A stretch of DNA of 63,312 nucleotides, counting the filler, from Collodictyon triciliatum (taxonomy: Eukaryota), in NCBI GenBank assembly GCA_043381765.1. It is 5 parts of 5 records of this genome, joined end to end, with 100 filler letters (N's around TTAATTAATTAA, not from the genome) between each part and the next. Parts side by side here need not be neighbours in the genome. Positions count along the whole stretch, not along the records: positions 1 to 15,310 come from JBHJMP010001690.1; 4 more parts are not named here. One strand, given 5' to 3'. Shown piece by piece: positions 1-60,546 of this stretch (the stretch's first letter is position 1; every line of letters starts with the position of its first letter). Under the pieces are notes generated by a model that saw nothing but the letters and a program-made list of their open reading frames with translations, searched no databases and had not been told where the DNA came from. A program made the translations under genes and the position numbers.

Positions 1-99
1 TTTCTTTTTCTCTTTCTTTTTCTCTTTCTTTTTCTCTTTCTTTTTCTCTTTCTTTTTCTCTTTCTTTTTCTCTTTCTTTTTCTCTTTCTTTTTCTCTTT
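1..99. repeat. Pyrimidine 12-mer tandem repeat (TTTCTTTTTCTC)n
   Basis: About 8 direct copies at the window start. Confidence 0.9.
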
Positions 100-175
100 G
101 TATTTCTCTATTTCTATGACAATTAAGATAGTTTACCTGTGAAGCAATTTTTAATGATAAAAAAATGATATTCAG

Positions 176-3109
176 TTGTCTGTGCTTCCCCAGTCACTTT
201 CAAGTATGGCGAATTTAAAATTGTTGGACATTGATAGCAATAACGTAATCGTCTATATCGTAATCCAAAATTGTACGCAGATGCCTTGTAGTTTCAATCA
301 ACCAAAAAAAAAAAAACATTCAAAAGCCAAGCTATTCAACAAAATCCTTTTTCAACTAAAAGAAATTATAAACAGCTGACTTCTTTATCGGGGTCCTTGT
401 TCCGAATAAGCAGTCTCACTCAACTTAAAGCTCACGGAAATCAAGTAGATATACATTCCCAGAAAAAACCATTGGTCAAACTATACTATGTGAGTACCAC
501 AGTCTTTATAATACAAATATGCAGATAGCAGTCGTTGATGATGGAATCCGCAACCTGACAAACCTCGTTCACATTTCCTTTGGAAGTAACAAAGTACGAA
601 TCGTCATATACAGCGTTCTCAAAATTGCTCTAGTGAACCACTTTGTTCTACCCCTCTGATTTTAATGAAAATGATATCATCAATTTGCAGCTGTCATCCA
701 TTCCCTTCGGAATTACCGATTTGACCGCACTTAGTGTTTTTCTTACACACCAAAATCCCATACCCTCAACCCTTGCCAAAGCTTGGGGGGCATATAATTT
801 CTCGTCGCAGATATTGCGCGTCTCTTCCCTCGGCTTTACAGGCAAAAATGAACTTGAATTTGATTTTATCCAAGGCTTCCCTGGATATTCATTCTCTGGA
901 ATCTTGGTAAGGGGAAACATAAAACTGTGTGATGCGTGCCTTGTGGCAATTTTTTTTTTTTTTTAAAAAAAAAAAGGCATGCTTATTATTATAATTAGAT
1001 GGAGCTGGCTCCGGCCAACCTTTGGTCATTGACAGATACAATTCACCTGGACCTCTCTGGGTCACAGGTCTGGCAATGAATTTTGTTGTTATCATTATTA
1101 TCTTGTCATCATCGTTCAAGAATGGATGAAATCACACCTCAATTGTGTTAAAAAAAATCGGCATTTTGTTTGATTCAAAGATAGTTAGAACTTTAACCAT
1201 TGCTCTTTATATAAATGATAAATCTTGCCATGTTGCAAAGATATCCTTCATCCCGGATGATATTTCGCAACTGTCACAGCTAAGGACACTTACCATATCT
1301 GATAATAATGTTTGTGAAAGAGTTGTTTTTACTTTCTTTTTTTTTTTTTTAAGAAAAAAAATCAAATTGTAATAATCTCAGTATCTTTGCAATATCCCAT
1401 TCGCTGATAGATAATAGCACGTTTACTTTGATAAAAAAAAAATAGTTGAGTTTTCTCCCAGACACTTTGGGAGACCTCCAAATGCTGGAAACATTATCTT
1501 TGGACCAGAACCACGTATATATACTATCTTGAAACACAAAACTGTATTTCGCTGCCACTCAAGTGTATACTTTTTTCTTTTTTTTTTTTTTGCTTTGCCT
1601 TTGCGTGGGAAAACCACGAATACTGTCCTTGGCGGAGTACAATAAAAATGGTAATCCAACATAAAGGTCGCATTTTTTCCAGCGTCCCTCTCTCGCTTAA
1701 CGAACTTGCAGTCCCTTTCATTCCAGAGAAATCAGGTTGACATATTCTACATGCCCTGACTTTGGTTGACACTTGAACACTATTTGTCTCGTTGAGTTTT
1801 ATCATTTTTTTTTTCACTCTCGGGCTACCTTCAATGCAATTTAAGAGACCAGGTGACTCTAAACTCCTTAATATTTGAAATGAGTGCAGGTTTCTACTCT
1901 GCCAAGCTTCTCCGAAAATGCCAGACTTACAGATTTTGTCTTTTTCAATAATAGTGTAAGATAGTTAACTCATTCTCCACCATTCCAGTTTCATATAATT
2001 TTTGTTTGCTTACGCATCTTCTTTCCTTGGCAGTTTATAACAATCATGTAATGATTTTTTTATTTACTCGAACAGGTATCAGAGATACCCGAATCTATAG
2101 GTTCGCTCTCGATGCTTCAAAGCCTATCTGCGAGCTCAAACAAAGTAATTTAATGAAACCGACTCAAGTCTCACCGTTTCCGTAGGAATAGGAGTTAAGC
2201 AAATGGGTCTCTGAAATAATAATCTCTGTGCCTTTAGATTACATGTCTCCCTGAAAATATGTCTAAATTGCAATCTCTCACTCTTTTGGAGTTGGCGAAC
2301 AACAAGGTTGAGATTATTGCTGACTGTTTTCCATCATAATTGGTCGCTTCTATGTCAGTTTTAAAAGGCTTTTGATTTGCTTACTTTCTATCCATTCCTC
2401 TTATTCCCTTTCTTTCATTCCTTTTTATTTCTCTTTCGATTTGAGGCTGACAACCACAAACATGTTTGTTGCATAATCGTTACAGATATCCCATTTACCA
2501 GAGGGCTTCGGTTTGGTGAAGGATTTGAGGATTCTGGATATTATAGGAAACCCGGTTAGATTAGCACAATACAGAAAAAAAAACGTTGCATTAGATTTAT
2601 AGCATATTCACATGCAGGAAAGCACATATCGTTTTCATGAAGATATCACTCATATGACTTGTATTTCCTTATCATAAAAGATATCTTACATCCCGTCCAC
2701 AATTCATCACATGAGCAATCTCACCGAGCTCGTCTTTGGAAGAGAACGAGTAAAGTTTACTATCGCGAGAGAAAACATAGCCCTGATTTAAAAGAATAGC
2801 ATCACAGCATTGCGCAAGCAAAACGTTTATCTGTCCTGTCACACTTTTTTTTTAATCAATCTGTTGTAGCCGCAGAGATACCGCATACACTACCACGCCT
2901 TTGAAAACTCGTCTCTGAAACAAGCGTTCGAATCGCAGCTCCATTATTTGAGCTACCCAAACACAATGCATCTCATGACCAAAGTCGAGCGATTGATTAT
3001 CTACGGCTTGGATATTTACTCACTGCCTGCGCAATTCATCCCCCAGAATGCATCTTACCTCTCCTTGTCAGGCAACAGGATTCGCCTCCTTCCAGATTCC
3101 TTCTGTTGA
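176..3109 (+). CDS. Leucine-rich-repeat protein, multi-exon, 5' end outside the window; 3' end uncertain
   Basis: AG/GT-bounded exons 176-244, 376-444, 525-593, 691-906, 999-1067, 1241-1309, 1446-1514, 1667-1735, 1890-1955, 2076-2144, 2238-2306, 2486-2554, 2681-2749 and 2870-3109 splice in phase 0. They give LRR units such as LSVLPQSLSSMANLKLLDIDSNN, LSFLPDTLGDLQMLETLSLDQNH and ITCLPENMSKLQSLTLLELANNK. Confidence 0.9.
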
Positions 3110-3516
3110 GAATCAAGCATTGAGATAAAGACAAAGAAAATGAATGAAAAAAAAGAGGACATGAATGCTTGTATACGGAAGAAAAAGTCAAAGCAAAATA
3201 AGCTGAACACGCGAGGCTCCTCCAGATGAAGTATCAAAAGATATCTTCAAAGTGCCAAAACATCATATTTTCATACCTTTCACTCTACTGTGATTCACAC
3301 ATAACCGTTTTCCCTATTTCATTTTCCATTCTATTTCTCATTCATATTTGTTTATTCAGTCCAAATCTATGAGATGTATCGCTCATTTACCGGGCCTTTT
3401 GGGATTGTAAGAAACGTACGGCGATTGTAATGCACCAAGATGCCTTGTTGGCACTTGCAGAGTATATGTTTCACTCGAAGCACAACAAGCGAGGTTCTTT
3501 GGCACAAGTCAGGCGC

Positions 3517-4228
3517 TTAAAAAGCTCCACCAAGCTGCATGAAATGAGAAGATTACACATATTAAATTATTAGGACAAGGATTATGGAAAACACGATGCA
3601 AAAAGAAGAAACACAATTTCATGGGTACAAACAAGACGAACTTCAACAGCAGCAATGTCGGCCGCAGAGAGTGTGGACCGGCGATATTTTTCAGGAATAT
3701 GTGTTTCTTGCAGGGTAACAACAACACGGGTGGAAGTGTCAGTCTTTTTTGGTCCTGCGGATGTAATCATGATGTGAATGTTGAAGAAGGACGCGTTAAA
3801 AACAAAATAATAATAATATTTTATTTAAATAATTAACAAGAAATATGGAAAATCGTACACAATAGTTAGAAAGATGAAAGGGAAGAAGATAAGAGAGAAA
3901 GATATGGGCAGGCATTCATCAAGAATGTGGCGTTTTGCTTCTTTCCTCTCCTCTGCTTTCAGCTTTCATTTCAATATTGATTATCAGTTCTTCGGGTATG
4001 TGGCGGTTATGTTAGTTGCTGTGATTTTGGATTTTTTCTCATGTCCAAAGACTTACGAGTGGCTGGGAAAGTGTGTCCGTGAGAAATCGGGCGGTTGGAA
4101 GGATGCGACGGGCTTTTTGGTAAAGCAGGGATTGTTTGTGCGGCCGGAGAGGTCAAAACTGCATTGTGTCCGTAGCGAAAGCGGATCAAAGGCGTGCGCA
4201 AGGCTTGTGAAAGTGTGGAAACTCGCAT
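3517..4228 (-). CDS. KGD4: Mitochondrial 2-oxoglutarate dehydrogenase adaptor KGD4 / MRPS36 family protein, 3 exons
   Basis: N-terminal MRVSTLSQALRTPLIRFRYG. After a GTAAGT..CAG intron comes IPEKYRRSTLSAADIAAVE, then a last exon LGGAF*. These match the family's PLIRF and KYRR..s.eei..i..GG motifs. An alternative ATG lies at 4258. Confidence 0.75.
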
Positions 4229-5409
4229 GTGTGCTTCGTAGGCCTGAGCGTCGGTCATTGTGAGTTGAAGAAAGAAAGAAAAAAAGAAAAAGAAAAAGAA
4301 AAAGAGAGGCAACACAAACGAAAAAAGAACGAAAGTGGGTGGCGTTTGCTGCTCGTTCCGACGTGTGGGAAACAATCTTCTCTCTCTCTCTTTCTGCCGA
4401 TTCCTTGGCACATAGGAAACAGCGCCTGACTCGACTGAGAATAAATAGAAAGCGCTAACTAGAGACAAACACAGCCGAACGCACGGAAAGTCGACTGCTC
4501 TGCTCGATCAAAGGTTTCCAGCCCCACTGATCAGACGATCAAAGAGCGCCAAGAAAAACAATATTGTACGGGAACGGCCGCAGCATCCGCCTTGAAGGAA
4601 AGGTGCAAGCTGCTTCAGGACTACGACTTGGATCGCAGACAAGCGAATGAAGAAGCCGCCAAAGTTATACAACAACGCGGCAGTCGCAACGAAAACGTCA
4701 CCGTCTTGTAAGCTTTGCGATCAAACTCGAAAAAGGAATGCACAGATTCTTTCCCACAAAAGCAAACGTCAGCGAAGCGTGCCAAAGCAGGAGAGTTTAA
4801 ACTGTTTGACCACTTTTTTCGCCCAGCAAGTAAGGTTCGCTTCTTTGCTGTGCGATCTGCTATAACGTCTGTCCAGGCCCACCGCGAATAACATCGATGA
4901 GGCGCGGAAAAAAGAGAAAAAGAAAAGCTTTTATCGTTTCTCACAGCTTCCGTTGTCGCTTAAACGGGTTAAGAACAAAGACAGTTTAGTTGAGTCTCCA
5001 GCATCAGAACCGCCCAAAGTACGATTGCATATCAACAAACAAGGCTTCTGCCGATCTGCTGTAATCCGCCCCGAAGGTTAGCAAGAGGAAAAACAAGGCA
5101 GCAGCCGTGGCAAACACCACCACAAATACTCGAAGGCTGAGCAGTCGAGTAGGGAAAGACAAGGTCAACCCAAGTTCAATCGTCAAAAGCTGTGGAGGAG
5201 GTAGAACATATCAACTAGCCCACCCATCGCCACTTAACCAAGAAGCCACTCTCAAGAGCTCTCCAGGGAGAATATGCAAGTTATTAGAAATGTTCAGCAC
5301 CCAAGAGCAATATTAACAATTCATCCAAGGAAAAGTCATGTGGGTTGGGGTCGATGATAACTTTTTTCATTCAAAATGTAAGTTACAATATACTGGGCGG
5401 TACTATCCT

Positions 5410-6296: not shown

Positions 6297-9200
6297 ATGT
6301 CTGCAACCGAAACAAGCACCGAGGCCAACGCCAGCCTTATCACCATCGACGAAGTCTGCAGAATTACATACATATCATTTCATCAAAAATTATATATATA
6401 TCAAAGAGGATTGATTGCTTACGCCAACAACTGAGCACAGGCTGTCCTCGAATGGGTGAACCACCACCTGGGAAAAATCGAGCTCAAGGCGACGAACATC
6501 CGCGATGATTTTATGGACGGGTTCTTTTTGGCCATGCTAATTGATGCGGTCACCGGAAAGTCCTTGGGAAGCTACCATTCGCGCTTGTTTGCGTATGATT
6601 TATTAATTGTATCCAAATCATTTATTCTTCTCATGGATTAGTATTTAATCCCTGTATTTATATCAGTGACAAAGCTATTGAGGAGGAAGTTCTTGTTAAC
6701 GAGAATCAGAAACTCATTGTTGATTGGTTTCTGACATTGAACGTGCGTTATGAGGCTGTTGCTTCTAAGGCCCATTACGCCGGTTTGCCTTATTTACTTT
6801 AAAGGGAATTGTTTGAAATCTTTCATATATCACTCATTTATTTTGTATGATTGACATATACCTATCTTACAGATTTGGTCTACACAATTCTCCAGTATCT
6901 AATTGGATTAAGTGTTGGCCATTTGGGAAGTCTTGGGGTAACAAAAAAACCTAATTTTTAAAATTTTCATTTTGATTTATATTTCGAACCATGTTGAAAT
7001 ATAATTTCTAATCATTAAATTGTAGAAAAAATGTCGTGAGAGGTACGATATTGCCAAGAAGCTCTACGAAAGAGTGAAGGCTCCGTTTCCTTTTCATGGT
7101 TGAAATTCGATTTATCTTATATTTTTATGATTATTCGATATATTTTTTGTTTTATCAATTTTTCAACTAAATTAAATTTAAATATTGATGCAGGTCTTGG
7201 TCTGGAAGAAAAAGGCTCTGTCGTACTAACCCGTACTTGCATTCTTCTTGACAAGGTTATCCATGAATTAATTTAAAAATAATTAAAAAATTTTACCTAA
7301 ATCCTTCCGATATGTGAAATATAATCGTGTATTTAAACCAGATGAAGCTTGCTCGTGAAGACCTGAAAGAGAGGCGATACAAGAAGTGGAATCCGGCTCC
7401 ACAAAGATACGTGACACCAACACCATTGCCGCTCATTGTCTTTGACGAGCGTGTCATCCGTGTTTTCCTTTCCTCGACTTTCCGTGACATGCAGCAAGAA
7501 AGAGACGAATTCTTCAGGAATGGAGCTCCAGAGTAAGTTCAATTCAATCCAATTAATAAATAAATCCATGATGAGGAATTATAATTTGATGCATTTATAT
7601 TACCAACAGTATTATCATTATGTCAGGTTGAAAAGACTTGCGAAATCGAAGGGATTAGACCTTGTCTTTATCGATTTGCGCTGGGGACTGACTTCTGAGG
7701 ACAGTAGTGAGGGATGGGTAAATACTATATTATTAACTCGTTATTTTTATGATAATTTTAAGAATATGCTGCATTATATAAAAGAATAAACTTCAATTTT
7801 CTCTTATTGCTTTCAAAGGTTGTGATTCGTTGTCTGGACTCTATCGGAAAATGCCCATACTTTGTGTGCTCTCTCGGTGCGCGCTACGGCTGGATTCCTG
7901 ACCAAAACAAAACGGAGCTGAATAAGCAAGCCCGCCTTGAGGAGCTGCTGAATACCAAGCCCGATGCCACCATGAAGGATATTTGGGTGGAATGGCGCAG
8001 TGAAACCAATAGCCGCTTTCCATTCATTGACGGAATGCCTGAGCTGAGTGTGACTGAATACGAGGTGAAGCTAATAATAGCGTGTATTCTGTATCTTCTC
8101 GTGAATAATTACAGTAGAAAAATAAACAAATTATTCTCTTAATCAAATATACATGTTCAGATTCAGTATGCCTGTCTGATTGACAAACCAGCATGCAGCC
8201 GCGCCTTCTTTTACCTCCGCGATGAGCACTATGCTGTCCAACATGCCAAGAGCGAGGAAGAAAGAAAGCTGTTCCAGGCTGAAAGCGAAGAGGCGGTAAA
8301 AATTGATAGAAAGTCTTTGTTTTTATTTTCAAGTTATTATTATATGATTATTTAATGATTCGATTTTTTGACACTTGTTTTAATGTATTTCTTTTAGCGT
8401 AAGAGGCAGGAGGAGCTCAAAGGGAAAGTCAAGGCCAAGTTCGGGCATGTTGTGTACAAAGGAGCGAAAGAGTATTCGGACTTTGTGACATACCATCTCT
8501 CCTACGCCATCGAGCGTGACTTTGGGAATCAAACTGTATTTTTTTTTGTAATTTTTGTGGATTTATGGATTTATGGATATATATTTCATTTCATTTGTTG
8601 ACATAACTGTATCCTAGGTGAGAGACCCTGAAGACCAAGCGCAGCACCAGTTCAAGATGCATCGACTGGCTGGGTTTGGCGGAAGAAAGGAGCTTCTCAA
8701 GATAATCACGGAGCAAGTAAGACGAAAAATAATGGAATTAAAATGACAACAATATCCTTTGATTTTTTCTTTTCTTATCAATAAATTATTTTTATCAGTC
8801 CATGAGTCAGCTGAGCATGGAGAAATCCAAAATCATCGTTCTTGCTGCCGAGTCTGGGATTGGAAAGTCATCGCTCATGGCTGCTACAGCGAGAGACCTC
8901 GAAGGGCTGAAGCATCCTGGGCTGCATATCTTTTTCCATTTTGTCGGATGCACCAACCTCAGCAACTACATGGAAAGGTTATTTATATTTCTTTTTGTTT
9001 TTATAAGTATAAAGATATTTTATTGTGTTTCTAAAAAAATACTTGTTTTATTTTAGTATTTCTATTCGCTTCTGGAATCTGGTCACAAACTCTGCCAACT
9101 TTGTCGAGGAAAAGAAGCAGGAAGCTGGTATTACAGCATTTCATTTTTATTTTTATCTTTTAATTCAAATGTCGTATAATTATTCAAGCATTCATCTTAT

Positions 9201-12200
9201 TTTGCCACCAGAATACGAAAAAGAGGGACTGCACGGCCTACTGAAAATTATTCAGGAGAAAACCATGTAATTCTTCAATTTTTATGACTGTTTTCATGAT
9301 TAAATCAAAATTAAAATGCTTTGAATCGAATAAAAAATTGATATTAATATTAAATTATATATTTTAGGGACGAGAAGTTTGTCTTTCTCATCGATGCCAT
9401 CAACCAAATCCACCCGTCGCAAGGAACGCCAGCTCCGCATTTGCTGACCTGGTTGCCCAAAGAAACGCCACCTAATGTTGCCATGGTTGTGTCGACCATT
9501 CATACCCATGAATCTTGCACGGTATTTAGTAATATTTTTTTGGGATATGTTTGTATTCTGCATAAAAATGATTTGAGTGGAAGGTTAATTAATGTTTCTC
9601 TGTCATAAGTCTGCCAAGAAAAGCGGACTGGAGCCGATTCCCATCGCCAAGTTGACTGAGGGTGAAGTTAAGTATGGAGTCGAATCATTCCTCATCCGCT
9701 ATGACAAGACCCTGAACGAAAAGCAAGTTGAAATGATTCTGACTGACTTGAAAGATACTGGTGAGACATTTTTAAAAGAGTATATATTTTGATTAAATTT
9801 TATAAGGAATAATTTAGTTTAGTTACTAATTATCTGATATTCATTATAGGCCATCCGCTCTATCTCCGCATCATTCTGGATGAAGTTAGGGTGTTTGGTG
9901 TCTATGAGAAGCTCGATGAAGAACTGTTTGCCCTGCTTTCGACCAATGGTGTCATTGAGCTTTACACTCTGATTATTAAGCGCTGGCAACTGAAGTTTGA
10001 CAGGAAAGGTGAGTATTGGTTGCATGTTTCACAAAAAAAAAATTCAAATTATAATTGCTACTTTTGTTGAATGAATCTTTTTTTTATTACAGTTTCATCA
10101 ACCGATGGAAAAAAGACAATACATGTCGAGTATGTCTCCCTCTCGATGAAGGTTCTTTTTGTCTCCCGCATTGGCCTGAGTGAAGGTGATTTGGATAAGT
10201 ACATGAAAGACGCGATTGGCACAGGATTCGAGCTTGCTGAATGGTTTTCTTACTCTTGAATTTTAATAGAATCAATATGTTTACCCATTTCTTTTCTTTT
10301 GATTTTACTTATCTTTTATTCATTCAAATAGGAAATCCTTCTTCTTTACCCTCATCGAGTCGCTTTTCGTCCGCAATGGAAGGTTGGTCTTATTTTTAAA
10401 TCCTTTCGTTCGTTAATTTGTGCTTTCGTAATAATTTTATTTTGATAATCTTAATCATTGTTTATTATAGATACATGTACTTCCACCAGCTGCTGTTTGA
10501 GACCACCGAAAAGGTCTACTTATCCGAAAAGAAAGAGATGGAAAAAACGCACGAAAAGTACGGAAAATGGCTGTTTGGCCAATATTTTGAGGTTGTTGAC
10601 GCGGATGAGGAGCTTGTTGCTGAGATATGCTACCAGCTTCTGAAGGGCAGTTCGTTTGACTTACTTGTCGAATACATGAAGCAAAAACATGTAATTTTTA
10701 TCTTTAATTCGAGTATTCTATACATAATGAAACGATTTCAATGATTATTTTTTTTTATAATTTATAGGTTATCAGTGTCATGCTTGGTGGTCGCTATCGC
10801 TACGAGTTCTTTACATGCTGGAGAGCAATCAACGCAAGTGGGGCGGCAAACTACAAAGAAGCTTATGGGAGCTTGGCGAAGGTTTAATTGATTATTTTCT
10901 TTTAATTTTTGAATGTTACTACTCACAAAATATAATTATCAATCATGATTTACCTTTTAATTTTTCAGTCTTTGGATAAAGTGGGAGACCTGCTCGTTGG
11001 ATTTTTCTTGGAGTCTTTTGAGAACTCGTTTCTGTTGTCTGTTCTGAATGTGCGCCTTGGACAACATCAAACAGAAGGTGTGGAATTCAATTTTCGTTTA
11101 TTGAGTAATATTTTAAGGGAAATTATGGATTCAATTTATTTACAATATTTCTTAATCTAAGACTCAAAGGCTGTTGATTATCTGAATCTTGGTCGTGTGT
11201 ACAAGAACCTCCAAAAGTAAAAACACGGTCGATGAATAAAGTTAATTAAGACATGATAACAATAAAATGCAAAATTTCTTACATATAAAATTAAACAGCT
11301 GGTCTGAATCCATGGTCTATTACAAGAGATGTCTTGATTCAGTTGAGAAGAATACCGATAATTCCCGGCGTATCGCCACCATTCATGAAGAAATGGGAAT
11401 CATCTACCAGCAACAGGATAAGTAAGGCTCGCTTTCAACTTTTAAAAAAAGTATATTATTGTGTTTCAAAAAATAGATGTTCTTATTTGCTTATTAAATA
11501 GAATTGATGAAGCTCTTGATGAATACGAGAAATCACTGGAATTGAGAACCAAACTGATGGGTGAGAACAACTTGCAAGTGGCCCAATCGCACGACCGCTT
11601 CGGAGACATCTATGTAAAGCAGTCAAAGTAATATTATTTCATCGTATTCCTTATCTTCTGCTTTTATTTTGTAAAAATACATATATGCTGATCCAATCTT
11701 TATGATAGGAATGAGAAAGCTCTGGCTGAATACATAAAGGCCATGGAAATCCGCCAAAAGAAAGTCGGAAACGAGCATCCACTAGTCGCAACATCGTACC
11801 AGAACTATGGCCATGTCTCTCTGGCTGGGAAAAAGTAGCATATTCATTCGATTTAAGACAGTTTTATATAGGGTTATTTATTTTTGAGAAATATTAAAAT
11901 GATTGAATCATCAAGGTATGAAGAGTCTGTTGAAAACTACGAAAAGGCAAAATCAATCCTTGAAAAATCGTTGGGAGCCAAGCATGCATCTGTTGCCTCG
12001 ACAATCCAGTTTATTGCAAACGTTCATCTTGCCCGTGGAATGTTCGAATTTCTAATTTTTAGATGTTTGCATACAACAATTTTTCCTTTCTTTCAATTTT
12101 TTCAAGATGAGTGTGGTTTCATATCTTTCATTTGTATGGACTCTATTTGGGAGCTGTGATTTTCGCATAATATAACTAATTTTAATTATCAAATAACTTT

Positions 12201-14990
12201 TGTCTTATATAGGAAAACGGAGGCCTTATCGTCATTAAAGCAATCGCTGGATATTTTCATGTCTGCCCTGGGTGAAAATCATCCGAATGTTGTGGCCTGC
12301 AATGAGATGATTGGAGATATCAGCCATGATTTGAAGATGTATCTCTTTTTCATATATATATTGAATTGAAACAAAAATATATTTACTCGCTCATATTATC
12401 TTAGTTTTAAGGGTGCTCTGGAGGCGTATACAAAGGCGCTGGATATTCGCATGAGAACACTGGGTGAAAAGCATGCTGATTATGCGACTGCCCTTGAAAA
12501 TGTTGGCAGAACAAACTTTGAGCTTCAAAGGTGCATTTACATATTTATTAAAAAATCAAATTATTAAATTGAATATTGTAAAAAACAAACTACTCAATAC
12601 TAAATTTTAAATCAAGGTTGGACCAAGTCATTGAATACTTCCAGAAGGCTGCTATTATCAGGAAGGAGACAAATACTATAATGTCACTGAAAGATGGCCC
12701 GCAAATTGATAATGTTATCCGACTCATGAAGGATAAAAAGGAGCATGAAGCTGCCATTCAGCTTTACATTACGCTGATTCATCTATTCAGTAGACTTTTC
12801 GTCTTGGATTATCTTGGAATATGGAGCAGCTGTGAGAAAATCGATAACATTTACAAGGAACTGAAGCAACATAATGAAGCAGTGCCGTTCTGGGCTGATA
12901 TGAAAGATAGATTCGCTGATAAACTCGGATGGATTCACCCCAGAACATTGAACTCGTGCGAATACTTGTCCGTCCATTCAAAAGAAATCGGGGTCAACAA
13001 AGAGCCTGTCGAGTTTACAAGAGTCAAGGAATTCATCAGTGAAACTCTTGATGATGCAAAACTGGATGAAGAATGGAATCGTGAGCAAATCATCGCATCA
13101 TTATTCAGAATTGTCTACATGTCAAAGAAACATGAAAGCAAATCAAAGGCTGCATCTGATGCAATCACACTTTTGAATTTCATGAATGTTTTGTTTGGTG
13201 GAATGGATTTATCAAACATCAAAATTCCACATGCAAATCTCAGTAACTCAATCCTTGATGGTGCAAACCTCACTGGTGCCGACTTGGATGGTGTTGATTT
13301 CACGAATTCGATGCTTGGTGATTGCATTTTTGATAATGCAAATATGAATAATGTGAAATTCGGAATTCCTCATTATAAACTAGAAGGACATACAAATGAA
13401 GTCTGGAATGTTTGCGGTATTCAAGGGCCGAATGGCGAAAACTGGTTGGCTTCTGGAAGCAATGATAATACAATTTGTATTTGGGATGTAGCCACAGGGA
13501 ACCAACTGAGAATATTAGATGGGCATACAAGCGATGTCTGGAGTATCTGCAGTATTCAAGGACTGAATGGTGAAAACTGGTTGGCTTCTGGAGGCTGGGA
13601 TAAAACAATACGTATTTGGGATGTAGCCACAGGGAACCAACTGAGAATATTGGAAGAACATGCAACTGATATCTGGAGTGTTTGCCGTATTCAAGGACCG
13701 AATGGTGAAAATTGGTTGGCTTCTGGAGGTGGCGACAACACAATACGTATTTGGGATGTGGCCACAGGAAACCAAATCAAAACATTGAAAGGACATATGG
13801 GTGTTGTCAATAGCATTTGCAGTATTCAAGGGCCGAATGGCGAGAATTGGCTGGCTTCTGGAAGTGGTGATAAAACAATAAGTGTTTGGGATGTATCCAC
13901 AGGAAACCAAATTAAAATATTAAAAGGGCATGTCAAAGATGTCATTAGTATTTGCAGTCTTCAAGGACCGAATGGCGAAAATTGGTTGGCTTCTGGAAGT
14001 GGTGATAAAACAATACGTGTTTGGGATGTAGTTTCAGGAAATCTAATCAAAATATTCGAAGGGCATACAAATGATGTTATGAGTGTCTGTAGCATTCAAG
14101 GACCGAATGGTGAAAAGTGGCTGGCTTCTGGAAGTAATGATAAAACAATATGTATTTGGGATGCAACCACTGGAAACCAAATTAAAACTTTAGAAGGTCA
14201 TGAAAAACCAGTCATGAATGTTGGTATTATTAAAGGATCGAATGGTGAACATTGGCTGGCTTCTGGGAGTGAAGATAATAAAATACGTCTTTGGGATATG
14301 GCCACAAATACCCTAATCAAAACGTTAGAAAGACATATAGAGCGTATCACTAGTGTTTGTAGTATTCAAGGACCGAATGGTGAAAATTGGTTGGCTTCTG
14401 GAAGTGATGCTAAAACGATACGTATCTGGGATGTAGCCACAGGAAACCAAACACACAGCCTGCAAAAATCGGAAGTTACATTCGATGAGAAGAAACATTT
14501 GGTAAAGAAAGAAAATCCAGATGAAATAATTGCAGTATTCAACAGAACAAGTGATGCGATGAACATGATTGATACCAACAGAGTCCAAGATGCAAGAACA
14601 GTCCAGATTTCCAGCCCAGGAGAGTTGGAAGGCGGAAACATCCAAATCAGAAATGTCGCAAGATTGAGTCAATTCAACAAAACCCTTCTATTTTCAATCG
14701 GTGCTGTTTCTTTCGATGCGGACTTTGCTGCCTATTGTGAGCAGGGTGAAATCACAGCGTTTCAAGCTCAAATAATGGCTGAGTGCTATGAGAATGGATG
14801 GGGTGTTGAGAAGGACAGCGATAAATCAGCTGAGTGGAGGCAGATTGCAGAGAACTTTGAAAATGATAATGATAGTGATGAAGAATACGAAGACGAACAC
14901 GAGGATGGAGATGGAAATGAAGATGGAAATGACGATGGAGATGACGATGGAGATGACGATGGAGATGACGATGGAGATGATCTGATCTGA
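6297..14990 (+). CDS. NLR/STAND-like protein: calponin-homology-like - DUF4062 - NACHT/NPHP3-like P-loop NTPase - TPR repeats - pentapeptide repeats - 8x WD40 - single Sel1-like motif - acidic tail
   Basis: ATG at 6297. CH-like segment AVLEWVNHHL..NIRDDFMDGFFLAMLIDAVTG. DUF4062 segment IRVFLSSTFRDMQQERD..FIDLRWGL..PYFVCSLGARYGWIP. Walker A AESGIGKSS (about 8847-8873), Walker B FVFLIDAINQ (about 9378-9407) and GHPLYLRIILDEVRVFG. TPR exons span 11299-12530. The terminal exon 12617-14990 is the 790-aa ORF, joined in phase 2. Confidence 0.88.
13380..14459 (+). repeat. Eight tandem 135-nt (45-aa) highly similar WD40 repeats
   Basis: Consensus L.GH...V.S(V/I)CSIQGPNGENWLASGS.DKTIRIWDVATGNQIK.; exact 135-nt period from 13380 to 14459. 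Confidence 0.97.
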
Positions 14991-15310: not shown

Positions 15311-15410
15311 NNNNNNNNNNNNNNNNNNNNNNNNNNNNNNNNNNNNNNNNNNNNTTAATTAATTAANNNNNNNNNNNNNNNNNNNNNNNNNNNNNNNNNN
15401 NNNNNNNNNN
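15311..15410. other. Artificial assembly spacer (44 N + TTAATTAATTAA + 44 N)
   Basis: The identical 100-nt structure recurs at 28152-28251, 37634-37733 and 60447-60546; the core has stop codons in all six frames. Confidence 0.97.
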
Positions 15411-18500: not shown

Positions 18501-19990
18501 AAAATTCTTAGTTTCATGCGGGACAATTATTATATGATTTTTGGAAGAAGAAAAAAAAAGCTCATCAACAGCATGATTCTATGAAAAAGAAAAATGATAC
18601 ATTTCCAGTTATATGGTAGGTTAAGAATTCGCCTCCCAATTGATTCGGTACATACCGACTCCTGTATGCGGCGATGTCTAGTATCTGCGAAGGGGCTTCC
18701 AAGATTTGGTCTCTGCGCAGCTGTTGGAGAAGACATAAAGTGAAAGCCATTCGTCCCGATCAGATCAGTCGGACTCTGAAGCACCGGTGGAAATGATAGG
18801 GTTGTGCGGGCCACTTCTGTTTGCTTTCCAGATGTCGCATTCTGATTCACTCTGAAATGTTGTGAGATACATACCAAGTAAGGTTTATTCCTTTGCATAT
18901 TTCGATAAGTTATGAGTTGAACAAGAACCAGCGAAAGAAATAATGATACTTGACACAGTGATATGAATCAATAAATAAAATAAAATGAGTACACATGCTT
19001 CTTGGGCGGAGATATCATTTACAGGATATTTTGTATGAAACAAAAATTGACTGGTATAGGATATTTAACTTACGCGATGTGGAGTGAATTGATTTTCTTT
19101 CCGCTAGCCACAGGAGGCAGGACAGATGATTTATTGGCGATGATCTATATTTGTTCGAGTTTTATTTTTGTTTTTTTGAAAGAAACAAAAAAATTTGGGA
19201 AAAAACACTAGAGATGAAAATAAGAAAGAAATCGGAGTCAGATAGCACTGAGAACCTTTTGTGGAGGCGAGCTACCCGACGAAACCCAACTTTGCTTCAC
19301 TAGAACTAATATAAAAGAGCGAATAACATAGTACAATTCAACTTAGATTTATTCATCACAGTCTCACTTTAAATCAGCAAGGATGTTGATATCTCATGAA
19401 GCAATCGGTTAATTATCATCAACATACATACATACATACATACATACATACATACATACATACATACATACNNNNNNNNNNNNNNNNNNNNNNNNNNNNN
19501 NNNNNNNNNNNNNNNNNNNNNNNNNNNACCCACGAATCATACCCCCAAACAATCATGCAATCATATTCATACAAACGAGTGTACTCAAGAGCAAACCCTG
19601 GCGCGCAGTTGCAGGAAACTCAGGTCTGAACAACGTGGGAGACTGACTCGCAACAAACACAGCAGAGTCCTTTGGCAGAGGAACAGACTGGCTTCGAAAC
19701 GGGACAAAGGAAGCGGATGATTTGCTGGACTGTGTTGCGGAGCTGATTGCAGGCAGCTTGTCAGACTCTGCCTTTGTCCTTGCGTGTTGGATGCGAGCGA
19801 CTTCGGCATCGTTTTCGTGTTCGGTTCTTTGGCCGACTCGTGCGGGCGACTCGCCTGAAGTGAAGTGGACTTCTCTGTGGGGCGGACGATCGCCGGCTGC
19901 GTCTGTGTCTTTGTGAGTCCGCAGAACCGAGCGCCGATTTGTGCCGGGCAGAGACGCTGCCGCTTCGTGGTTGCGGTCGGTTGTGTGCAT
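15585..19990 (-). CDS. Hypothetical multi-exon protein with a low-complexity N-terminus and C-terminal coiled coil (boundaries approximate; may be 3'-truncated by the spacer)
   Basis: Minus-strand AG/GT-bounded exon-like segments include MHTTDRNHEAAASL.., SEYEKSMLATYEVDGDDID.., SQSFLDQE|VFLREKVEGMKIYAERM and ADEIENLTKQNNELK. No family recognised. Confidence 0.55.
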
Positions 19991-28151: not shown

Positions 28152-28251
28152 NNNNNNNNNNNNNNNNNNNNNNNNNNNNNNNNNNNNNNNNNNNNTTAAT
28201 TAATTAANNNNNNNNNNNNNNNNNNNNNNNNNNNNNNNNNNNNNNNNNNNN
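28152..28251. other. Artificial assembly spacer
   Basis: 44 N + TTAATTAATTAA + 44 N. Confidence 0.97.
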
Positions 28252-31663: not shown

Positions 31664-33270
31664 TTAGATTAGCTCCACTTTATTTTCCAATAATAAGCCC
31701 ATCATAGGCTGGTAGCGCATAAGATACAAATCTCCTTTCGAGAGCTCAAGCGCGTCGTCCTGGTCGTCTGCAGGGGTGAACACTCCGATTTCCTCGGTCA
31801 CTCGAACAAATACATGTGTGTTGTAGTTTGGTTTCGGTACTGGAAGTAGAAGACAAAAAAAAATCATAATCAGCATGACATCATATATATTGAGCCCTAA
31901 ACGAAGGAAGTCACGAATGTGAAATCTAATTAGGGAGCTCTTTTTCTTTCTTTCTTTCTTTCTTCCATTCTGATATATAAAAAAATAATAAAATCATATG
32001 AATGTGTACCCATGTCTTCTTGCCGGTCTTGAACAGTAAGGCTTCTAAGATTTTCTGGAATATAACTCAAGAATGACCTGTTCAGTCCTTCCTCGATAAT
32101 TTCTCTATATCTATTGAATTTTGTCAAAGTTACGAAGGGAACCTCAGAACCACCTTGTGCCATTGAATAAACAGCACGAAGATAAAATTAAAACCACTGA
32201 GCAAATTTTGTCGTTCATTATTTAAAATATAAATGACTAGTCTTTGAATATAGATTCAATAAAAATAAAATAAAATAAACATGTTTCGGTGGGGTTAAAC
32301 TTCTGCGAATCATTACTTGGAGACGAATTCAAGCTCTTGCGCGGACAACCGGCCCATAAGGTCTCGGCTGGATAGGATGTGAGTGTTGAATTCCTGAATC
32401 TATAGCATTTAATTTGCTTTGTTATTTAGATTCCTCATATCAGTTTAAACTACTTAACCCGATGGGAATATGTGTGAATACAAAATGATTTAAAGAAGAA
32501 AGGGAAATCAATAATATTGTCGTGATTTTCATATATATATACATGACAACAAAACGATTATTAAAAAAAAAATGATAATAAAAAATAGCAAAGATAGATT
32601 TTTTTGTTATTAAGATAAAATGATAGACAGAGTTCTCTGAAGTAACGCATGTAATCTCCATTTCATAATAATCGAAGATGCAGTATTCAAGGAAAACAAA
32701 TATGCGCGTGCGAAGACTTTTTCTTTTCTTTTTCTTTTTTTACTTTTTCCAGCCGTGTGCGCAAGTATGATCGGATCATGAAGCGGATCCTCTCCACCTC
32801 CATCCTGTACAGAGAAGCCATCAAGGCATCTGACGGGTTTCCCACACCAAGCGTGTTGTCTTCCTTTTTTTTTTTTTTTTTTTTTTTTTTTGAACAAAAA
32901 AAAAAAGATTTAATAGGGAATGGACAATAAGAGTTGTGCATGAGGGCATATATGAAAAGCTGTGCGTCATACACTTTGTGGCACAATGACGACGATTGTA
33001 GCAGCCCAACAAAAAGATTATCACTTATCCCTCACAGCTAAAAGGAAACCATCTGTTTTGTGTAATTCGATAAGAAAGGCACTTTTTGCAGCCACCCCCC
33101 ACCTGGTTTTCCAGTTGCTCAAGCATGTTTTGGACGAGCGTCTCCTGAAAGGGAAGAAGCTCGGGAGAAGATCGCTCGTTGATCCACGCCTGCCGCAAAC
33201 TGCGGACATCCTCGCTCATATACGACACCGAATTGACGCCGCCTTCGTCAGTCGTATTGTCGTCTCCCAT
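31664..33270 (-). CDS. SLD5: DNA replication GINS complex subunit Sld5 (GINS4)
   Basis: LRQAWINERSSPELLPF, MEVERIRFMIRSYLRTRLEKI, RLSAQELEF and PNYNTHVFVRV..KGDLYLMRY..VELI*. Confidence 0.95.
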
Positions 33271-33345: not shown

Positions 33346-33429
33346 TTTTTTTTTTGAGTGTGCTTNNNNNNNNNNCAAACTGCTTTTTCAAAAAACAAAG
33401 ATCTTTTAGCCTTATTCGCCCAGAATTAA

Positions 33430-37633: not shown

Positions 37634-37733
37634 NNNNNNNNNNNNNNNNNNNNNNNNNNNNNNNNNNNNNNNNNNNNTTAATTAATTAANNNNNNNNNNN
37701 NNNNNNNNNNNNNNNNNNNNNNNNNNNNNNNNN
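37634..37733. other. Artificial assembly spacer
   Basis: 44 N + TTAATTAATTAA + 44 N. Confidence 0.97.
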
Positions 37734-51586: not shown

Positions 51587-56875
<5,289 letters not shown>

Positions 56876-57448: not shown

Positions 57449-60058
57449 TCACATGGACACTAGCTTGCGCAAGGCGTCGTCATCGCCCTGGTCGCAGGCG
57501 CGCAGATACCAGTGGGCAGCGGCGGAGGCAGAGACGGGGACGTCGTGGCCGGCCGCGTGGGCCTCGCCGAGGGCGCGCTGGGAAGGGAGATACCCGTTTG
57601 TGGCGGCCATGAGGCACCAGCGCAGCGACTCGCGGGCGGACTCGACCGTCCAGCGGTTGCGGTAGCAGACATGGAGGTTGCTCTGCGCGACGACGCTGCC
57701 CTGCTCGGCGGCCTTGTGGAACCAGCGGATGCCCTCGCCGACGTTGCGCTCCGTGCCCTGGCCGCGCGCGTAGTAGAAGCCGAGGGTGGACTGGGCGGAC
57801 GCGTAGCCCTGCTCGGCAGACCGCAGATACCAGCGGAAGGCCTCCTCCATGTTCTGCTCCACGCCGTGCCCGTTGCCGTAGCACATCCCGAGGTTGCACT
57901 GCGCGTACATGTAGCCCTTCTCAGCCGCGCGCCGGTACCACTCGAAGGACTTGGCCTGGTCCTTGGGCACGCCCACGCCGTTCCAGTACATGTTGCCGAT
58001 GCTGTTTTGCGCGTGCAGGTTCTGCTGCTGCGCCGCGCGCATGTACCAGTCGAACGCCTGCGCGTAGTCCTGCCCGACGCCCCGCCCGTGCTCGTACGAG
58101 TACGCAAGATTGTCCTGCGCGCTGGCGTTGCCCTTCTCCGCCGCCGTCCGGAACCAGTGCACCGCCTGCGCGTAGTCCTGCCCGACGCCCCGCCCGTTCT
58201 CGAAGCACAGCCCCACGTTGTTCTGCGCGCTCGCGTTGCCCTTCTCCGCCGCGCGCATGTAGTGCGCAAACGCCTGCCCGTAGTCCTGCCCGACGCCCCG
58301 CCCGTGCTCGAAGCAGATCCCCACGTTGTTGAGCGCGTAGATGCTCCCGTTCTCTGCCGCGCGCATGTACCACCCAAACGCCTGCGCATAGTCCTGCCCG
58401 ACGCCGTTGCCCTTCTCGTAGCAGATCCCCAGGTTGTTTTGCGCGTACGAGCTCCCTTGCTCCGCGGCCTTGCGGTACCAGTGGATGGCCTGCGCGTAGT
58501 CCTGCCCAACGCCTCGTCCGTGCTCGAAGCATGACCCCAGGTTGTTTTGCCCATCCTCGTTGCCTTGCTCCGCGGCCTTGAGATACCACTGAGCCGCCTG
58601 TGCGTAGTCCTGCCCAACGCCCCGCCCGTTCTCGTAGCAGATCCCCACGTTGTAGTACGCACTCGTGTTCTCCTGCAGCGCAGCCTTCAGGAACCAGTGG
58701 AAGCCTTGCTCATAGTCCAGCTCCACCCCGACCCCGTTGTAGTAGCACGTCCCGAGATAGTTTTGCGCGTTGGCGCTGCCTTTGACCACCGCGCGCCGGT
58801 ACCACAGGATGGCCTGCTTGTCGTCCTTGGGCACGCCTTGGCCCTTTTCGTAGCACAGTCCCAGATTGCTCTGCGCGTACGGATCTTGCGCGTCGGCCGC
58901 CTGCCGGTACCAGTAGATGGCCTGCGACAGATCCTGCGGCGTGCCTTCGCCCTTCTCGTAGCAGATCGCAAGGTTGTTTTGTGCAGTGATGTGTCCTTTC
59001 TTTGCCGCCCGGGTGAAAAAATCAAACGCCTTGCCGTAGTTGCGCGCCACTCCTTGTCCGTTCCAGTAGCAGATACCAATCGTGCGCTCCGCATAGATGT
59101 TCCCCAAGTGTGCGGACACAAGATAGAACCGGGCCGCATCCGCATGCTTCTCCTCCAGCAGGTCCAGCAGATAGCCGGTGAGAAAGTGGCATTGAATCGC
59201 CATTTGGTCTTCCAGGCTCCCTTCTGCATCAGAGCCCGGTACTGTGCCTGAAGAGCTACCCTGCAAAGTGTCGCTTTTAGTCGTGTGAGACTCCTTTTCT
59301 AGTCTGGCAGGCTTTCCAGGCAGCGGACGAGCGTCATATCCGGCCTGCACATTCGATAATGTCTGGCCTGGTGGCTCGTCACTGGTTGGCCGTGCAGCCA
59401 CTGGGGCTGAAGAGTCGAGATTTTCCTTGGCAGAGAAGCAAACTAGTGGTGTCTGCAATGAGTCTGACGCAAGCTTTGTCTTGGCCTTCGCAAGTCGCGG
59501 CGATTGGGCCAAGGGCGATTCCTGCTGCAGACGAAAGCCCGACTCTGCATCCCCCTCAACAGCAGCAGACGGTACAGAGGCTTCATCATCATGATCATCA
59601 CCTATGTTTGCTGCGTCGTTGCTTGCAAGAGTCTCGTCCTCAGAAGGCGGCTCCACTTGGGTCTTTGGCGTGTTTTCTACTGTGTGCTCGGGCCCCAACT
59701 CAGCAGCAACCTCGGCCAGCAGCGTCCCAGAAAGAAGCTCCGGACGCAGAGGAAACTTTGCACAGAGCTTTGCGAGGGCATTGCGTGAGCGGACCAGTGC
59801 GTGGGCCGAGCAGGAGCGCGCTTTGTTGTACTGCTCGTCTACAAGATCTTTTTCTCGCGGGTGGTCGATCAGGGCCGGGCGGTAAAAGTAGATTGCGCGC
59901 AGGCAAAGCATGGCCACCACAAAGTCCGGCTCCAGGCTCAGCAGCGTCTCGAGATCCTTGTGGGCCTCCTCCGCGCGATACTGCGACATGCAAAGCACCG
60001 CGGATTCGAGCAGTGCGGTGATTCGTGGATCGGGCGCTGCGGAGGCTTTGCTGTCCAT
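57449..60058 (-). CDS. Intronless Sel1-like repeat protein (869 aa, about 15 SLRs) with an N-terminal TPR-like segment
   Basis: Uninterrupted ORF. 36-aa units AQNNLG.CYE.G.GV.QDY.QA..WY..AAEQG begin at 59092. Confidence 0.95.
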   Translation of the reverse strand: MDSKASAAPDPRITALLESAVLCMSQYRAEEAHKDLETLLSLEPDFVVAMLCLRAIYFYRPALIDHPREKDLVDEQYNKARSCSAHALVRSRNALAKLCAKFPLRPELLSGTLLAEVAAELGPEHTVENTPKTQVEPPSEDETLASNDAANIGDDHDDEASVPSAAVEGDAESGFRLQQESPLAQSPRLAKAKTKLASDSLQTPLVCFSAKENLDSSAPVAARPTSDEPPGQTLSNVQAGYDARPLPGKPARLEKESHTTKSDTLQGSSSGTVPGSDAEGSLEDQMAIQCHFLTGYLLDLLEEKHADAARFYLVSAHLGNIYAERTIGICYWNGQGVARNYGKAFDFFTRAAKKGHITAQNNLAICYEKGEGTPQDLSQAIYWYRQAADAQDPYAQSNLGLCYEKGQGVPKDDKQAILWYRRAVVKGSANAQNYLGTCYYNGVGVELDYEQGFHWFLKAALQENTSAYYNVGICYENGRGVGQDYAQAAQWYLKAAEQGNEDGQNNLGSCFEHGRGVGQDYAQAIHWYRKAAEQGSSYAQNNLGICYEKGNGVGQDYAQAFGWYMRAAENGSIYALNNVGICFEHGRGVGQDYGQAFAHYMRAAEKGNASAQNNVGLCFENGRGVGQDYAQAVHWFRTAAEKGNASAQDNLAYSYEHGRGVGQDYAQAFDWYMRAAQQQNLHAQNSIGNMYWNGVGVPKDQAKSFEWYRRAAEKGYMYAQCNLGMCYGNGHGVEQNMEEAFRWYLRSAEQGYASAQSTLGFYYARGQGTERNVGEGIRWFHKAAEQGSVVAQSNLHVCYRNRWTVESARESLRWCLMAATNGYLPSQRALGEAHAAGHDVPVSASAAAHWYLRACDQGDDDALRKLVSM

Positions 60059-60387
60059 GTTTTCCCTCGCCGGTGGGTTTCCTTGGTCGTGGGTCTGCGA
60101 TCGTATTTGTTCCTTGGTGGCTGTGCGGTTTTCTGTTTGCGTTTCAATTTGTCTTCCTCTACGTTGTTGTTGTTATTTTTTTTGTGGTTTTTTTGTGGTT
60201 TTTTTGGTTTTTTTGGTTTTTTTTCCTTTATTCGATTCAAAGTGTAGCGTTTGTTTTATGTTTTATGTTTGTTGTTTTATGTTTTATGTTTGTTGTTTGT
60301 TGTTTGTTGTTTGTTGTTTGTTGTTTTTTGTTTGTTGTTTTTTGTTTTTTTGTTTTTTTGTTTTTTTTATTTTTTTTTTGTTTTTTT

Positions 60388-60446
<59 letters not shown>

Positions 60447-60546
60447 NNNNNNNNNNNNNNNNNNNNNNNNNNNNNNNNNNNNNNNNNNNNTTAATTAATT
60501 AANNNNNNNNNNNNNNNNNNNNNNNNNNNNNNNNNNNNNNNNNNNN
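60447..60546. other. Artificial assembly spacer
   Basis: 44 N + TTAATTAATTAA + 44 N. Confidence 0.97.

Follow-up and report, generated by a model that had tools for sequence, protein, structure and literature searches.

Near the start of a 63-kb window of the Collodictyon triciliatum genome (the window being the whole stretch of DNA analysed, 63,312 nucleotides) lies the expressed 3′ part of a gene whose product ends in at least 15 leucine-rich repeats (LRRs) of the 23-residue type. The repeats appear to be encoded by old, duplicated cassette exons that are now spliced constitutively, a reading to which we assign a probability of about three in four. The gene is transcribed and correctly spliced in two RNA runs. 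We regard the locus as real and ordinary: an old and stable case of a gene layout for which brown algae, ciliates and humans provide earlier examples.

The visible gene model consists of 14 exons and 13 introns, with 1278 coding nucleotides (426 codons). Its features, in window positions, are as follows:

1..100, no strand: CTTTTTCTCTTT-like simple repeat opening the window; probably an assembly break that removes the 5′ part of the gene
101..175, plus strand: 3′ end of an intron with its upstream exon outside the window, acceptor ...attcag at 170-175; each of the three frames is closed by stops, and an in-frame ATG exon is absent
176..244, plus strand: first visible LRR cassette exon, 69 nt, phase 0; scores 29.4 bits against the array's own profile; no RNA cover
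376..444, plus strand: LRR cassette exon, 69 nt, phase 0; own-profile match; no RNA cover
525..593, plus strand: LRR cassette exon, 69 nt, phase 0; own-profile match; no RNA cover
691..906, plus strand: probable exon of 216 nt in phase 0, encoding 72 aa in an open frame between acceptor ttgcag and donor gtaagg; predicted, no RNA cover
999..1067, plus strand: LRR cassette exon, 69 nt, phase 0; own-profile match; no RNA cover
1241..1309, plus strand: LRR cassette exon, 69 nt, phase 0; its last 7 letters form the loose end before 1446 in a cDNA contig of run X1
1446..1514, plus strand: LRR cassette exon, 69 nt, phase 0; RNA joint 1514>1667
1667..1735, plus strand: LRR cassette exon, 69 nt, phase 0; RNA joints on both sides
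1890..1955, plus strand: shorter LRR cassette exon of 66 nt in phase 0, encoding 22 aa instead of 23; RNA joints 1735>1890 and 1955>2076
2076..2144, plus strand: LRR cassette exon, 69 nt, phase 0; RNA joints on both sides
2238..2306, plus strand: LRR cassette exon, 69 nt, phase 0; RNA joints on both sides
2486..2554, plus strand: LRR cassette exon, 69 nt, phase 0; RNA joint 2306>2486
2681..2749, plus strand: LRR cassette exon, 69 nt, phase 0; RNA joint 2749>2870 (runs X1 and X3)
2870..3109, plus strand: last coding exon, 237 nt coding (2870-3106), 79 codons followed by TGA at 3107-3109

That each LRR occupies one phase-0 exon of 69 nt (66 nt in one case), with all exons cut in the same register, had been proposed in a first-pass annotation and is borne out here. 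All 12 proposed exons are preceded by AG, followed by GT and open in frame, with the lengths claimed for them (11 of 69 nt and one of 66 nt), and six joints are present in RNA. Spliced in order, the 12 exons give a single open reading of 275 residues, with one LRR per exon and every exon in phase 0. Each exon starts four residues ahead of a conserved Pro and ends one residue past the Asn of the LxxLxLxxN motif. The solenoid unit is 23 residues long in 11 of the 12 cassettes and 22 in the other, and its consensus is of the type LxxLPxxLxxLxxLxxLxLxxNx; the Asn at position 22 and the Pro at position 5 are each conserved in 10 of the 12 exons, and the Leu at position 14 in 11. These cassettes have the attributes that define the LRR superfamily, namely tandem repeats of 20-30 residues with the core LxxLxLxxN/CxL. 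As a control for chance, open 69-nt intervals between AG and GT were collected across the whole 63-kb window, which holds 95 of them on the plus strand and 71 on the minus strand. The 11 exons of 69 nt match 6-8 of the 8 LRR scaffold positions (ten of them at least 7). The nine other intervals listed at a score of 5 or more all score 5-6 and are scattered elsewhere; we consider them noise, one being a poly-Val microsatellite.

The exon list of the first-pass annotation was correct for all 12 of its entries but missed the probable exon at 691-906 and the last exon. The former lies inside the 405-nt interval 594-998 that had been read as an intron, and its sequence features suggest that it probably belongs to the gene. 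It begins in LRR register with one recognisable repeat, followed by about 49 irregular residues; the match to the repeat profile is confined to its first 14 residues, and the stretch 760-906 is a poor LRR. An open frame over 72 codons has a probability of 0.005 given intron composition and of 0.04 given the exon's own composition. The GC content of this exon is 44%, compared with 32% in introns and 43-48% in exons generally. The last exon contains a diverged stretch (its first half, again a poor LRR), about two further LRRs and a partial one; the end of the protein falls within an LRR. The stop codon directly follows this LRR, and a Roc-COR module after the LRRs is absent. An RNA contig of run X3 passes the TGA as far as 3112 without a further joint, which marks the end of the gene. 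At the other extreme, the 5′ part, comprising an N-terminal effector or anchoring region, was probably lost at the assembly break. Simple repeats also flank other contig joins in the window.

RNA contigs demonstrate the splicing of 6 of the 13 introns, exactly as proposed. The joints 1514>1667, 1735>1890, 1955>2076, 2144>2238 and 2306>2486 are found in contigs of run X1, all of them GT..AG at the predicted bases, and 2749>2870 is present in runs X1 and X3. The 7 introns of the 13 that have no RNA support are all on the 5′ side except for 2555-2680, which is retained in one X3 contig and there introduces an in-frame TAG at 2600-2602. The five X1 joints occur at an equal depth of 7.12, and 31 loose nucleotides, five exons of 69 nt, one of 66 nt and 5 further nucleotides sum to 447, a length that fits one contig. 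From this equal depth and length arithmetic we infer that a single 447-nt cDNA contig links six consecutive cassettes in genomic order. No skipping joint is found among the eight joints listed from the RNA contigs, which are assemblies of public runs that drop rare isoforms and leave low-level exon skipping invisible. Every run holds at most 0.12 of the sampled words, and the stretch 101-1162, which has no RNA cover, is uninformative on expression. The RNA contigs differ from the window by 1-2% (the changes in exons are two synonymous and two non-synonymous), and therefore the same exon order holds in a slightly different strain.

The exons are deeply diverged, to the point of saturation. Their pairwise nucleotide identity has a mean of 39% and a maximum of 49%, compared with 28% for random intron 69-mers, and identity at codon position 3 is 25.5% against a random expectation of 25%. 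Neighbouring exons are no closer to each other (38.7% identity between adjacent exons) than distant ones (39.4%). The claim of the first pass that divergence is greatest at the exposed x positions is not supported: the x positions of the concave face have a mean entropy of 2.55 bits, against 2.33 bits at other non-scaffold positions (one-sided Mann-Whitney p = 0.13). BLAST comparisons of intron to intron and of unit to unit returned A/T homopolymer matches only, with no intron homology. A scan of the window in six frames with the array's own profile recovered no relic or antisense LRR exons beyond the known ones, at a low sensitivity to strongly diverged units (the profile is overfitted, and the RNA-verified 66-nt exon scores only 0.8 bits). 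One weak profile match, at 32035-32070 on the minus strand, was rejected as an LRR relic, being half a motif in a non-LRR context. The array most likely arose by the tandem duplication, long ago, of a unit made of an exon plus its intron. The copies would then have diverged to saturation and would now be spliced constitutively in genomic order, presumably also across the 5′ exons outside RNA cover. The exon layout may accordingly be seen as a fossil of domain growth, not as a working generator of diversity.

Comparison with known structures places the repeats in a broad class. The profile of the 12 exons matched 180 distinct PDB sequences at E ≤ 0.001. The top match is Leptospira LIC11098 (3e-54), with 15 stretches in an exact 23-residue period, and the next are FLS2 (3e-44), LRRD1 (6e-27), SHOC2 (about 2e-25), LRRC8D (3e-24) and RSU1 (2e-15). 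Single exons are too short for Pfam models, with best scores of 15.5 bits for LRR_8 (cut-off 27), 13.9 for LRR_1 (20.6) and 12.5 for LRR_14 (40); 11 of the 14 single pieces have no Pfam match, and the last exon matches LRR_1 at E = 0.059. A 23-residue repeat with LP at positions 4-5 is shared with domains of the SHOC2, RSU1, LRRC8 and LRRD1 type, and also with many ROCO proteins; the SHOC2-like 23-residue repeats form the class called 'Ras-group LRR'. The likeness to SHOC2-type domains does not extend to orthology, and the per-repeat scores are no better than those against plant 24-residue ectodomains such as FLS2.

Searches for closer relatives gave generic matches. The last exon has no word-sharing relative in the 'longer' band of a word-indexed protein collection. 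Against 1.84 billion representatives, it matched 49 generic LRR proteins through residues ~20-79, with several stretches in each and at internal positions, and no ortholog is among them. The 12 best of these matches include six proteins that carry LRR families only and two LRR-Roc(-COR) proteins with the LRRs ahead of Roc; the remainder are one kinase-LRR, one TIR-LRR, one TIR-NB-ARC-LRR and one protein combining LRRs with Listeria-Bacteroides repeats. When all 14 pieces were aligned, 487 of the 7999 candidates scored in the 'longer' band proved to be generic LRR proteins, whereas the 303 candidates of the 'near' band of short lengths included none. Orthology to a named member (SHOC2, RSU1, PIRL, LRRC8 or others) was rejected, as the matches are generic and multi-stretch only. 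Since no ortholog was found, function can be read solely from the type of domain. On this basis, the LRR domain most likely gives a larger protein a curved C-terminal surface for binding other proteins.

Arrays with one LRR per exon have been described in several lineages, and the first-pass annotation had recognised the cassette layout of Ectocarpus LRR-ROCO genes. The general idea of LRR cassettes holds, but the particulars differ. The brown-algal module is 72 nt long and encodes 24 aa (Zambounis et al. 2012, PMC3341825), and its introns are in phase 2 (Teng et al. 2024, PMC11378527). The latter paper also reports that the LRR exon arrays of Ectocarpus ROCO genes are alternatively spliced. 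The brown-algal 'type I LRR exons' of Ectocarpus and Saccharina, found in LRR-ROCO and other loci, resemble the present ones in carrying one LRR per exon, in their identical, frame-preserving lengths and long tandem arrays, and in the broad consensus LxxLxLxxNxL, the variable part of which contains a Pro. Their register is GxxPxxL...NxLx, whereas it is LxxLP...Nx here, and their LRRs stand ahead of Roc-COR, whereas the present gene stops after the LRRs. They also show recent shuffling, alternative splicing, and introns that contain relic exons, either non-coding or in reverse orientation, while the exons of the present gene are saturated, with no relics found and no skipping seen. Signs of recent shuffling (close exon pairs and intronic relics) are lacking within this locus, at the low sensitivity of the profile. 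Membership in the brown-algal type I or LRR-ROCO group was rejected on the grounds of the 69-nt length, phase 0, the other register and the lack of Roc-COR downstream.

The LRR arrays of Tetrahymena (Xiong et al. 2019, PMC6564038) have 90-bp exons with phase-2 introns, number thousands of genes and include young, near-identical exons. They are interpreted there as clonal expansions by exon duplication, with old groups that retain no nucleotide similarity (PMC6564038). These arrays share with the present gene tandem exons of one exact length, an LRR unit in each and a uniform intron phase; the definition given for them (exactly 90 bp, phase 2) does not cover exons of 69 nt in phase 0. Human LRR genes (Hoss et al. 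2019, PMC6642158) have exons that keep the frame and span one or two LRRs at 69-87 bp per repeat, and LRR exons of 69-87 bp are enriched. The modular pattern described for them, with frame-preserving exons of one LRR whose borders fall at a fixed structural position of the repeat, is also that of the present gene. The human NLRP exons differ, being 171 bp long with two RI-type repeats (28 + 29 aa) and with skipping shown experimentally for NLRP3 exon 5 (PMC6642158), in contrast to the 23-residue repeats and the one splice order seen here. Among the papers listed by a literature search, none describes this exact module, a 69-bp, phase-0 LRR exon array, in its title or abstract.

The first pass had read the array as a combinatorial receptor. 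On this reading, skipping or mutually exclusive splicing would combine the phase-0 cassettes in different ways, or exchange between loci would reshuffle them, and many binding specificities would result, as has been proposed for the LRR-ROCO genes of brown algae. All cassettes are indeed symmetric (0-0) with lengths that are multiples of 3, and any subset of them would stay in frame, as modular splicing needs; alternative splicing of LRR arrays is moreover reported for Ectocarpus ROCO genes and human NLRP3. Nevertheless, in the one multi-exon transcript observed, six cassettes follow each other as they do in the genome, with no skipping among the eight listed joints, and the array has neither near-identical exon pairs nor intron homology. 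Relic or antisense LRR exons in the introns (within the limited sensitivity of the scan) and an excess of variability on the concave face are likewise missing, which leaves this reading unsupported and, in our judgement, improbable. We give even less credence to the locus being a transcribed relic, that is, a piece of a gene left at the end of a contig and in decay. Such decay would be in keeping with a window that contains neither the start codon nor the 5′ part of this gene, with the in-frame TAG brought in by the one retained intron, and with the poor LRRs at 760-906 and in the first half of the last exon. However, 426 codons are open over 14 exons with intact splice sites, splicing is correct in two runs, and exon GC is clearly above that of introns; the 5′ end is missing just where the assembly breaks at a simple repeat, as it does elsewhere in the scaffold.

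The LRR array could also act as the sensor arm in a signalling or immune-type protein with several domains. The LRRs would then follow a STAND NTPase, TIR or kinase domain encoded upstream of the window, and the whole would be NLR-like or a kinase-LRR, not an LRR-only scaffold. We view this as possible but doubtful. The position of the LRR block at the extreme C-terminus, as in NLRs, is consistent with it, as are the kinase-LRR, the TIR-LRR and the TIR-NB-ARC-LRR among the 12 best representative matches and the presence of a STAND gene 3.2 kb away. These matches, however, reflect generic repeat similarity without orthology, and the same 12 contain the two LRR-Roc(-COR) proteins, the six proteins that carry LRR families only and the one with Listeria-Bacteroides repeats. 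A metagenome scan for upstream sequence yielded a single, spurious locus (L001), which was rejected as a bacterial contig with a 29-residue match antisense within a 1404-aa ORF. The gene 3.2 kb downstream is of the STAND type, with CH, DUF4062, an NPHP3_N-type P-loop, TPR_12 and WD40, in line with its description as NLR-like in the first pass. An unrelated, well-expressed gene lies between the two, however, convergent on the minus strand (3334-4245, with its poly(A) end at 3334), and two genes are no cluster; the idea of an immune cluster is weak. A more far-reaching scenario, in which this deep-branching freshwater protist would harbour a large lineage-specific family of 69-nt cassettes whose arrays grow and exchange by exon duplication, and in which the present block would do the sensing for a STAND/NLR-like or kinase protein encoded across the gap, seems to us a long shot.

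Were a lineage-specific family of this kind real, it would represent the third independent invention of receptor diversification by one-LRR-per-exon arrays, after brown algae and ciliates, with its own module of 69 nt in phase 0. The module itself differs from those of brown algae (72 nt, phase 2) and ciliates (90 bp, phase 2), which means that the design arose more than once. The locus would gain importance only if its cassettes were shown to be actively shuffled or combinatorially spliced, of which there is no sign here. The locus is useful for annotating the genome of Collodictyon triciliatum, because ORF-based tracks miss such genes. The first pass had pointed out that the ORF track largely misses this one, which is true but trivial: of the 10 ORFs of at least 60 aa in 1-3200, three touch exons in frame (176..379, 643..966 and 2377..2559), by read-through into introns. 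The array also adds a small data point on the register between introns and repeats. It provides a clean, RNA-supported example of the growth of a repeat domain by exon duplication, from a poorly sampled eukaryote.

The window DNA is eukaryotic and AT-rich (GC 31-61% in 2-kb bins), with short GT..AG introns, and the LRR gene tail with one repeat per exon is real, expressed and was correctly read. All 12 LRR exons proposed in the first-pass annotation between 176 and 2749 are open and flanked by AG and GT, 11 of them 69 nt and one 66 nt long as claimed, and in phase 0 they join into a single open frame of 275 residues. Every cassette is one LRR (consensus xSxLPxxxxxLxxLxxLxxxxNx), and the intron falls at a constant position, one residue past the Asn. 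As a chance control, all intervals in the window made up of AG, 69 open nt and GT (95 on the + strand, 71 on the - strand) were scored on eight LRR scaffold positions; only the 11 exons of this gene combine a score of 6-8 out of 8 with a serial arrangement. Nine other listed 69-nt intervals (score 5-6, scattered) were rejected as noise.

The original exon list was right in its 12 members and incomplete, omitting two further segments:

691-906, + strand: probable exon, 216 nt, phase 0, open, with a strong acceptor (ttgcag) and a strong donor (gtaagg)
2870-3106, + strand: last exon, followed by TGA at 3107-3109; a diverged stretch, about two further LRRs and one partial LRR

The first of these, which lies within what had been taken for a 405-nt intron (594-998), is probably an exon of the LRR gene, albeit an unproven one. 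It starts in the LRR register, its GC content is 44% (exons 43%, introns 32%), and an open frame of 72 codons has P=0.005 under intron composition; the repeat profile matches just its first 14 residues, the remainder being irregular. With both segments the visible coding sequence reaches 1278 nt (426 codons) and at least 15 repeats. At the other end, an RNA contig continues past the TGA to 3112 with no further joint, and therefore the protein ends in LRRs, with no Roc-COR or other domain after them.

Splicing was assessed by comparing four public sequencing runs with window positions 101-5400, which yielded spliced cDNA contigs; no public run contained more than 0.12 of the words sampled from the window. 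Five joints, all GT..AG, were found in one run, X1 (1514>1667, 1735>1890, 1955>2076, 2144>2238 and 2306>2486). Each has a depth of 7.12, and the lengths together with a 31-letter loose end sum to one contig of 447 nt, from which we infer that all five lie on a single contig. The loose end is an adaptor-like string, presumably a template-switch oligo, followed by seven letters identical to the last ones of exon 1241-1309. Both X1 and a second run, X3, contain the joint 2749>2870. Thus, splicing at the predicted bases is shown for 6 of the 13 introns in the model, and six cassettes follow one another in the transcript as they do in the genome. Divergence between contigs and window is about 1-2%, including two synonymous and two non-synonymous differences in exons, and therefore a slightly different strain has this exon order too. 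No exon-skipping joint occurs among the eight joints listed, which come from contigs blind to rare isoforms and without cover of the 5' exons 176-1067. Intron 2555-2680 is unspliced in one X3 contig, representing either pre-mRNA or intron retention; its translation would meet a TAG at 2600-2602.

The 11 equal-length exons share a mean DNA identity of 39% (maximum 49%, minimum 22%), compared with 28% for random intron 69-mers. By codon position, identity is highest at the second (57%), lower at the first (36%) and lowest at the third (25.5%), where it equals the composition expectation of 25%. Neighbours are no closer to each other than distant exons (38.7% vs 39.4%), and matches between introns, or between whole exon-plus-intron units, are A/T homopolymers only. 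An exon-derived profile, which is overfitted (it gives the RNA-verified 66-nt exon 0.8 bits), detected no further LRR units in introns or in the rest of the window, reverse strand included. Low exon identity, random third positions, the lack of intron homology and the lack of extra units argue for an array that is old and not recently shuffled. Divergence had been thought to concentrate at the exposed x positions, which the entropies do not support. Variability extends over every non-scaffold position: the mean is 2.55 bits for the five x residues of LxxLxLxxN and 2.33 bits for the remaining nine (one-sided p=0.13).

One-LRR-per-exon designs are already known from brown algae, Tetrahymena and human. 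In brown algae, ROCO LRR exons are 72 nt (24 aa) (PMC3341825) and in phase 2 (PMC11378527), with recent shuffling, relic exons, alternative splicing and LRRs ahead of Roc-COR (PMC3341825, PMC11378527); the gene described here departs from them in four of the five features compared, the fifth being alternative splicing, on which the contigs give six cassettes in order and one unspliced intron. The other systems comprise 90-bp, phase 2 exon arrays in Tetrahymena, including old groups without remaining nucleotide similarity (PMC6564038), and, in human LRR families, an enrichment of frame-preserving one-LRR exons (69-87 bp) with a constant border in each repeat (PMC6642158). The combination of 69 nt, phase 0 and a cut after Nx is one more instance of the design, apparently an independent one.

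Because single exons are too short, Pfam performs weakly on them (best LRR_8, 15.5 bits where the cut-off is 27; 11 of 14 pieces without a match). A profile built from the 12 exons matches 180 PDB sequences, the best being Leptospira LIC11098 (3e-54, 15 stretches, exact 23-residue period), followed by FLS2, SHOC2, LRRD1, LRRC8 and RSU1. The 23-residue period with LP is consistent with the 'Ras-group' LRR class; per-repeat scores fail to separate this class from plant ectodomains. 'Ras-group' LRRs are mostly cytoplasmic scaffolds. No ortholog was found, either with the last exon against protein collections or in an alignment search with all 14 pieces; one metagenome locus was rejected as spurious. 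The best 12 representative matches have mixed architectures (kinase-LRR, TIR-LRR, TIR-NB-ARC-LRR, LRR-Roc(-COR) and LRR-only) and give no indication of the domains upstream in this gene.

Downstream, two genes are recognizable:

3334-4245, - strand: convergent spliced gene (exons 4245-4056, 3753-3642 and 3534-3334), well covered, poly(A) at 3334, in three runs (X1, X3 and X4)
about 6297-14990, + strand: large multi-exon STAND-type gene with domain matches

The latter matches CH (3.5e-5), DUF4062 (6e-5), an NPHP3_N-type P-loop (0.0034), five TPR_12 pieces and WD40 (4e-70), the exons being so short that most pieces stay under Pfam cut-offs. Its TPRs are apparently encoded one piece per exon, and its last ORF (802 codons) has eight WD40 stretches (4e-70), pentapeptide-like repeats (by eye) and an acidic tail. 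Calling it 'NLR-like' is fair in a broad sense. The case for an immune cluster is weak, as the convergent gene stands between the LRR and STAND genes. That small gene has CT..AC joints and an open frame of about 105 codons, and it matches no Pfam family. Beyond 4245, X1 and X4 carry identical loose 5' letters, which may reflect an additional exon upstream or a shared leader. Separately, two unspliced X1 contigs lie at 4912-5378 (+ strand) and are about 97-98% identical to the window (one has 10 differing letters and one gap over 293 bases, the other four differing letters over 200 bases); they could be an untranslated transcript, UTR or DNA carry-over.

The 5' part of the LRR gene is absent, as positions 1-100 are simple repeat and 101-175 are intron. 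An identical artificial join (44 N, TTAATTAATTAA, 44 N) occurs four times (15311-15410, 28152-28251, 37634-37733 and 60447-60546), each time flanked by simple repeats, and N runs also occur at 19472-19527, 33366-33375 and 53002-53342. Several contigs are therefore scaffolded together in the window, an assembly break most likely truncates the LRR gene on its 5' side, and linkage beyond 15310 is no direct evidence of adjacency. Elsewhere on the scaffold, an uninterrupted 907-codon ORF (57449-60172, - strand) with many Sel1-like repeats, read by eye from the translation, sits in a 51-61% GC island amid AT-rich DNA. A 640-codon ORF (61188-63110, - strand) shows, by eye, a protein-kinase-like middle and a His-Ser dipeptide run; long overlapping ORFs in other frames there reflect its GC-rich composition.

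The array most likely arose by ancient exon duplication, and its cassettes are most likely spliced constitutively. The LRR block would most likely bind proteins, as the C-terminal domain of a product whose N-terminal part lies beyond the window.
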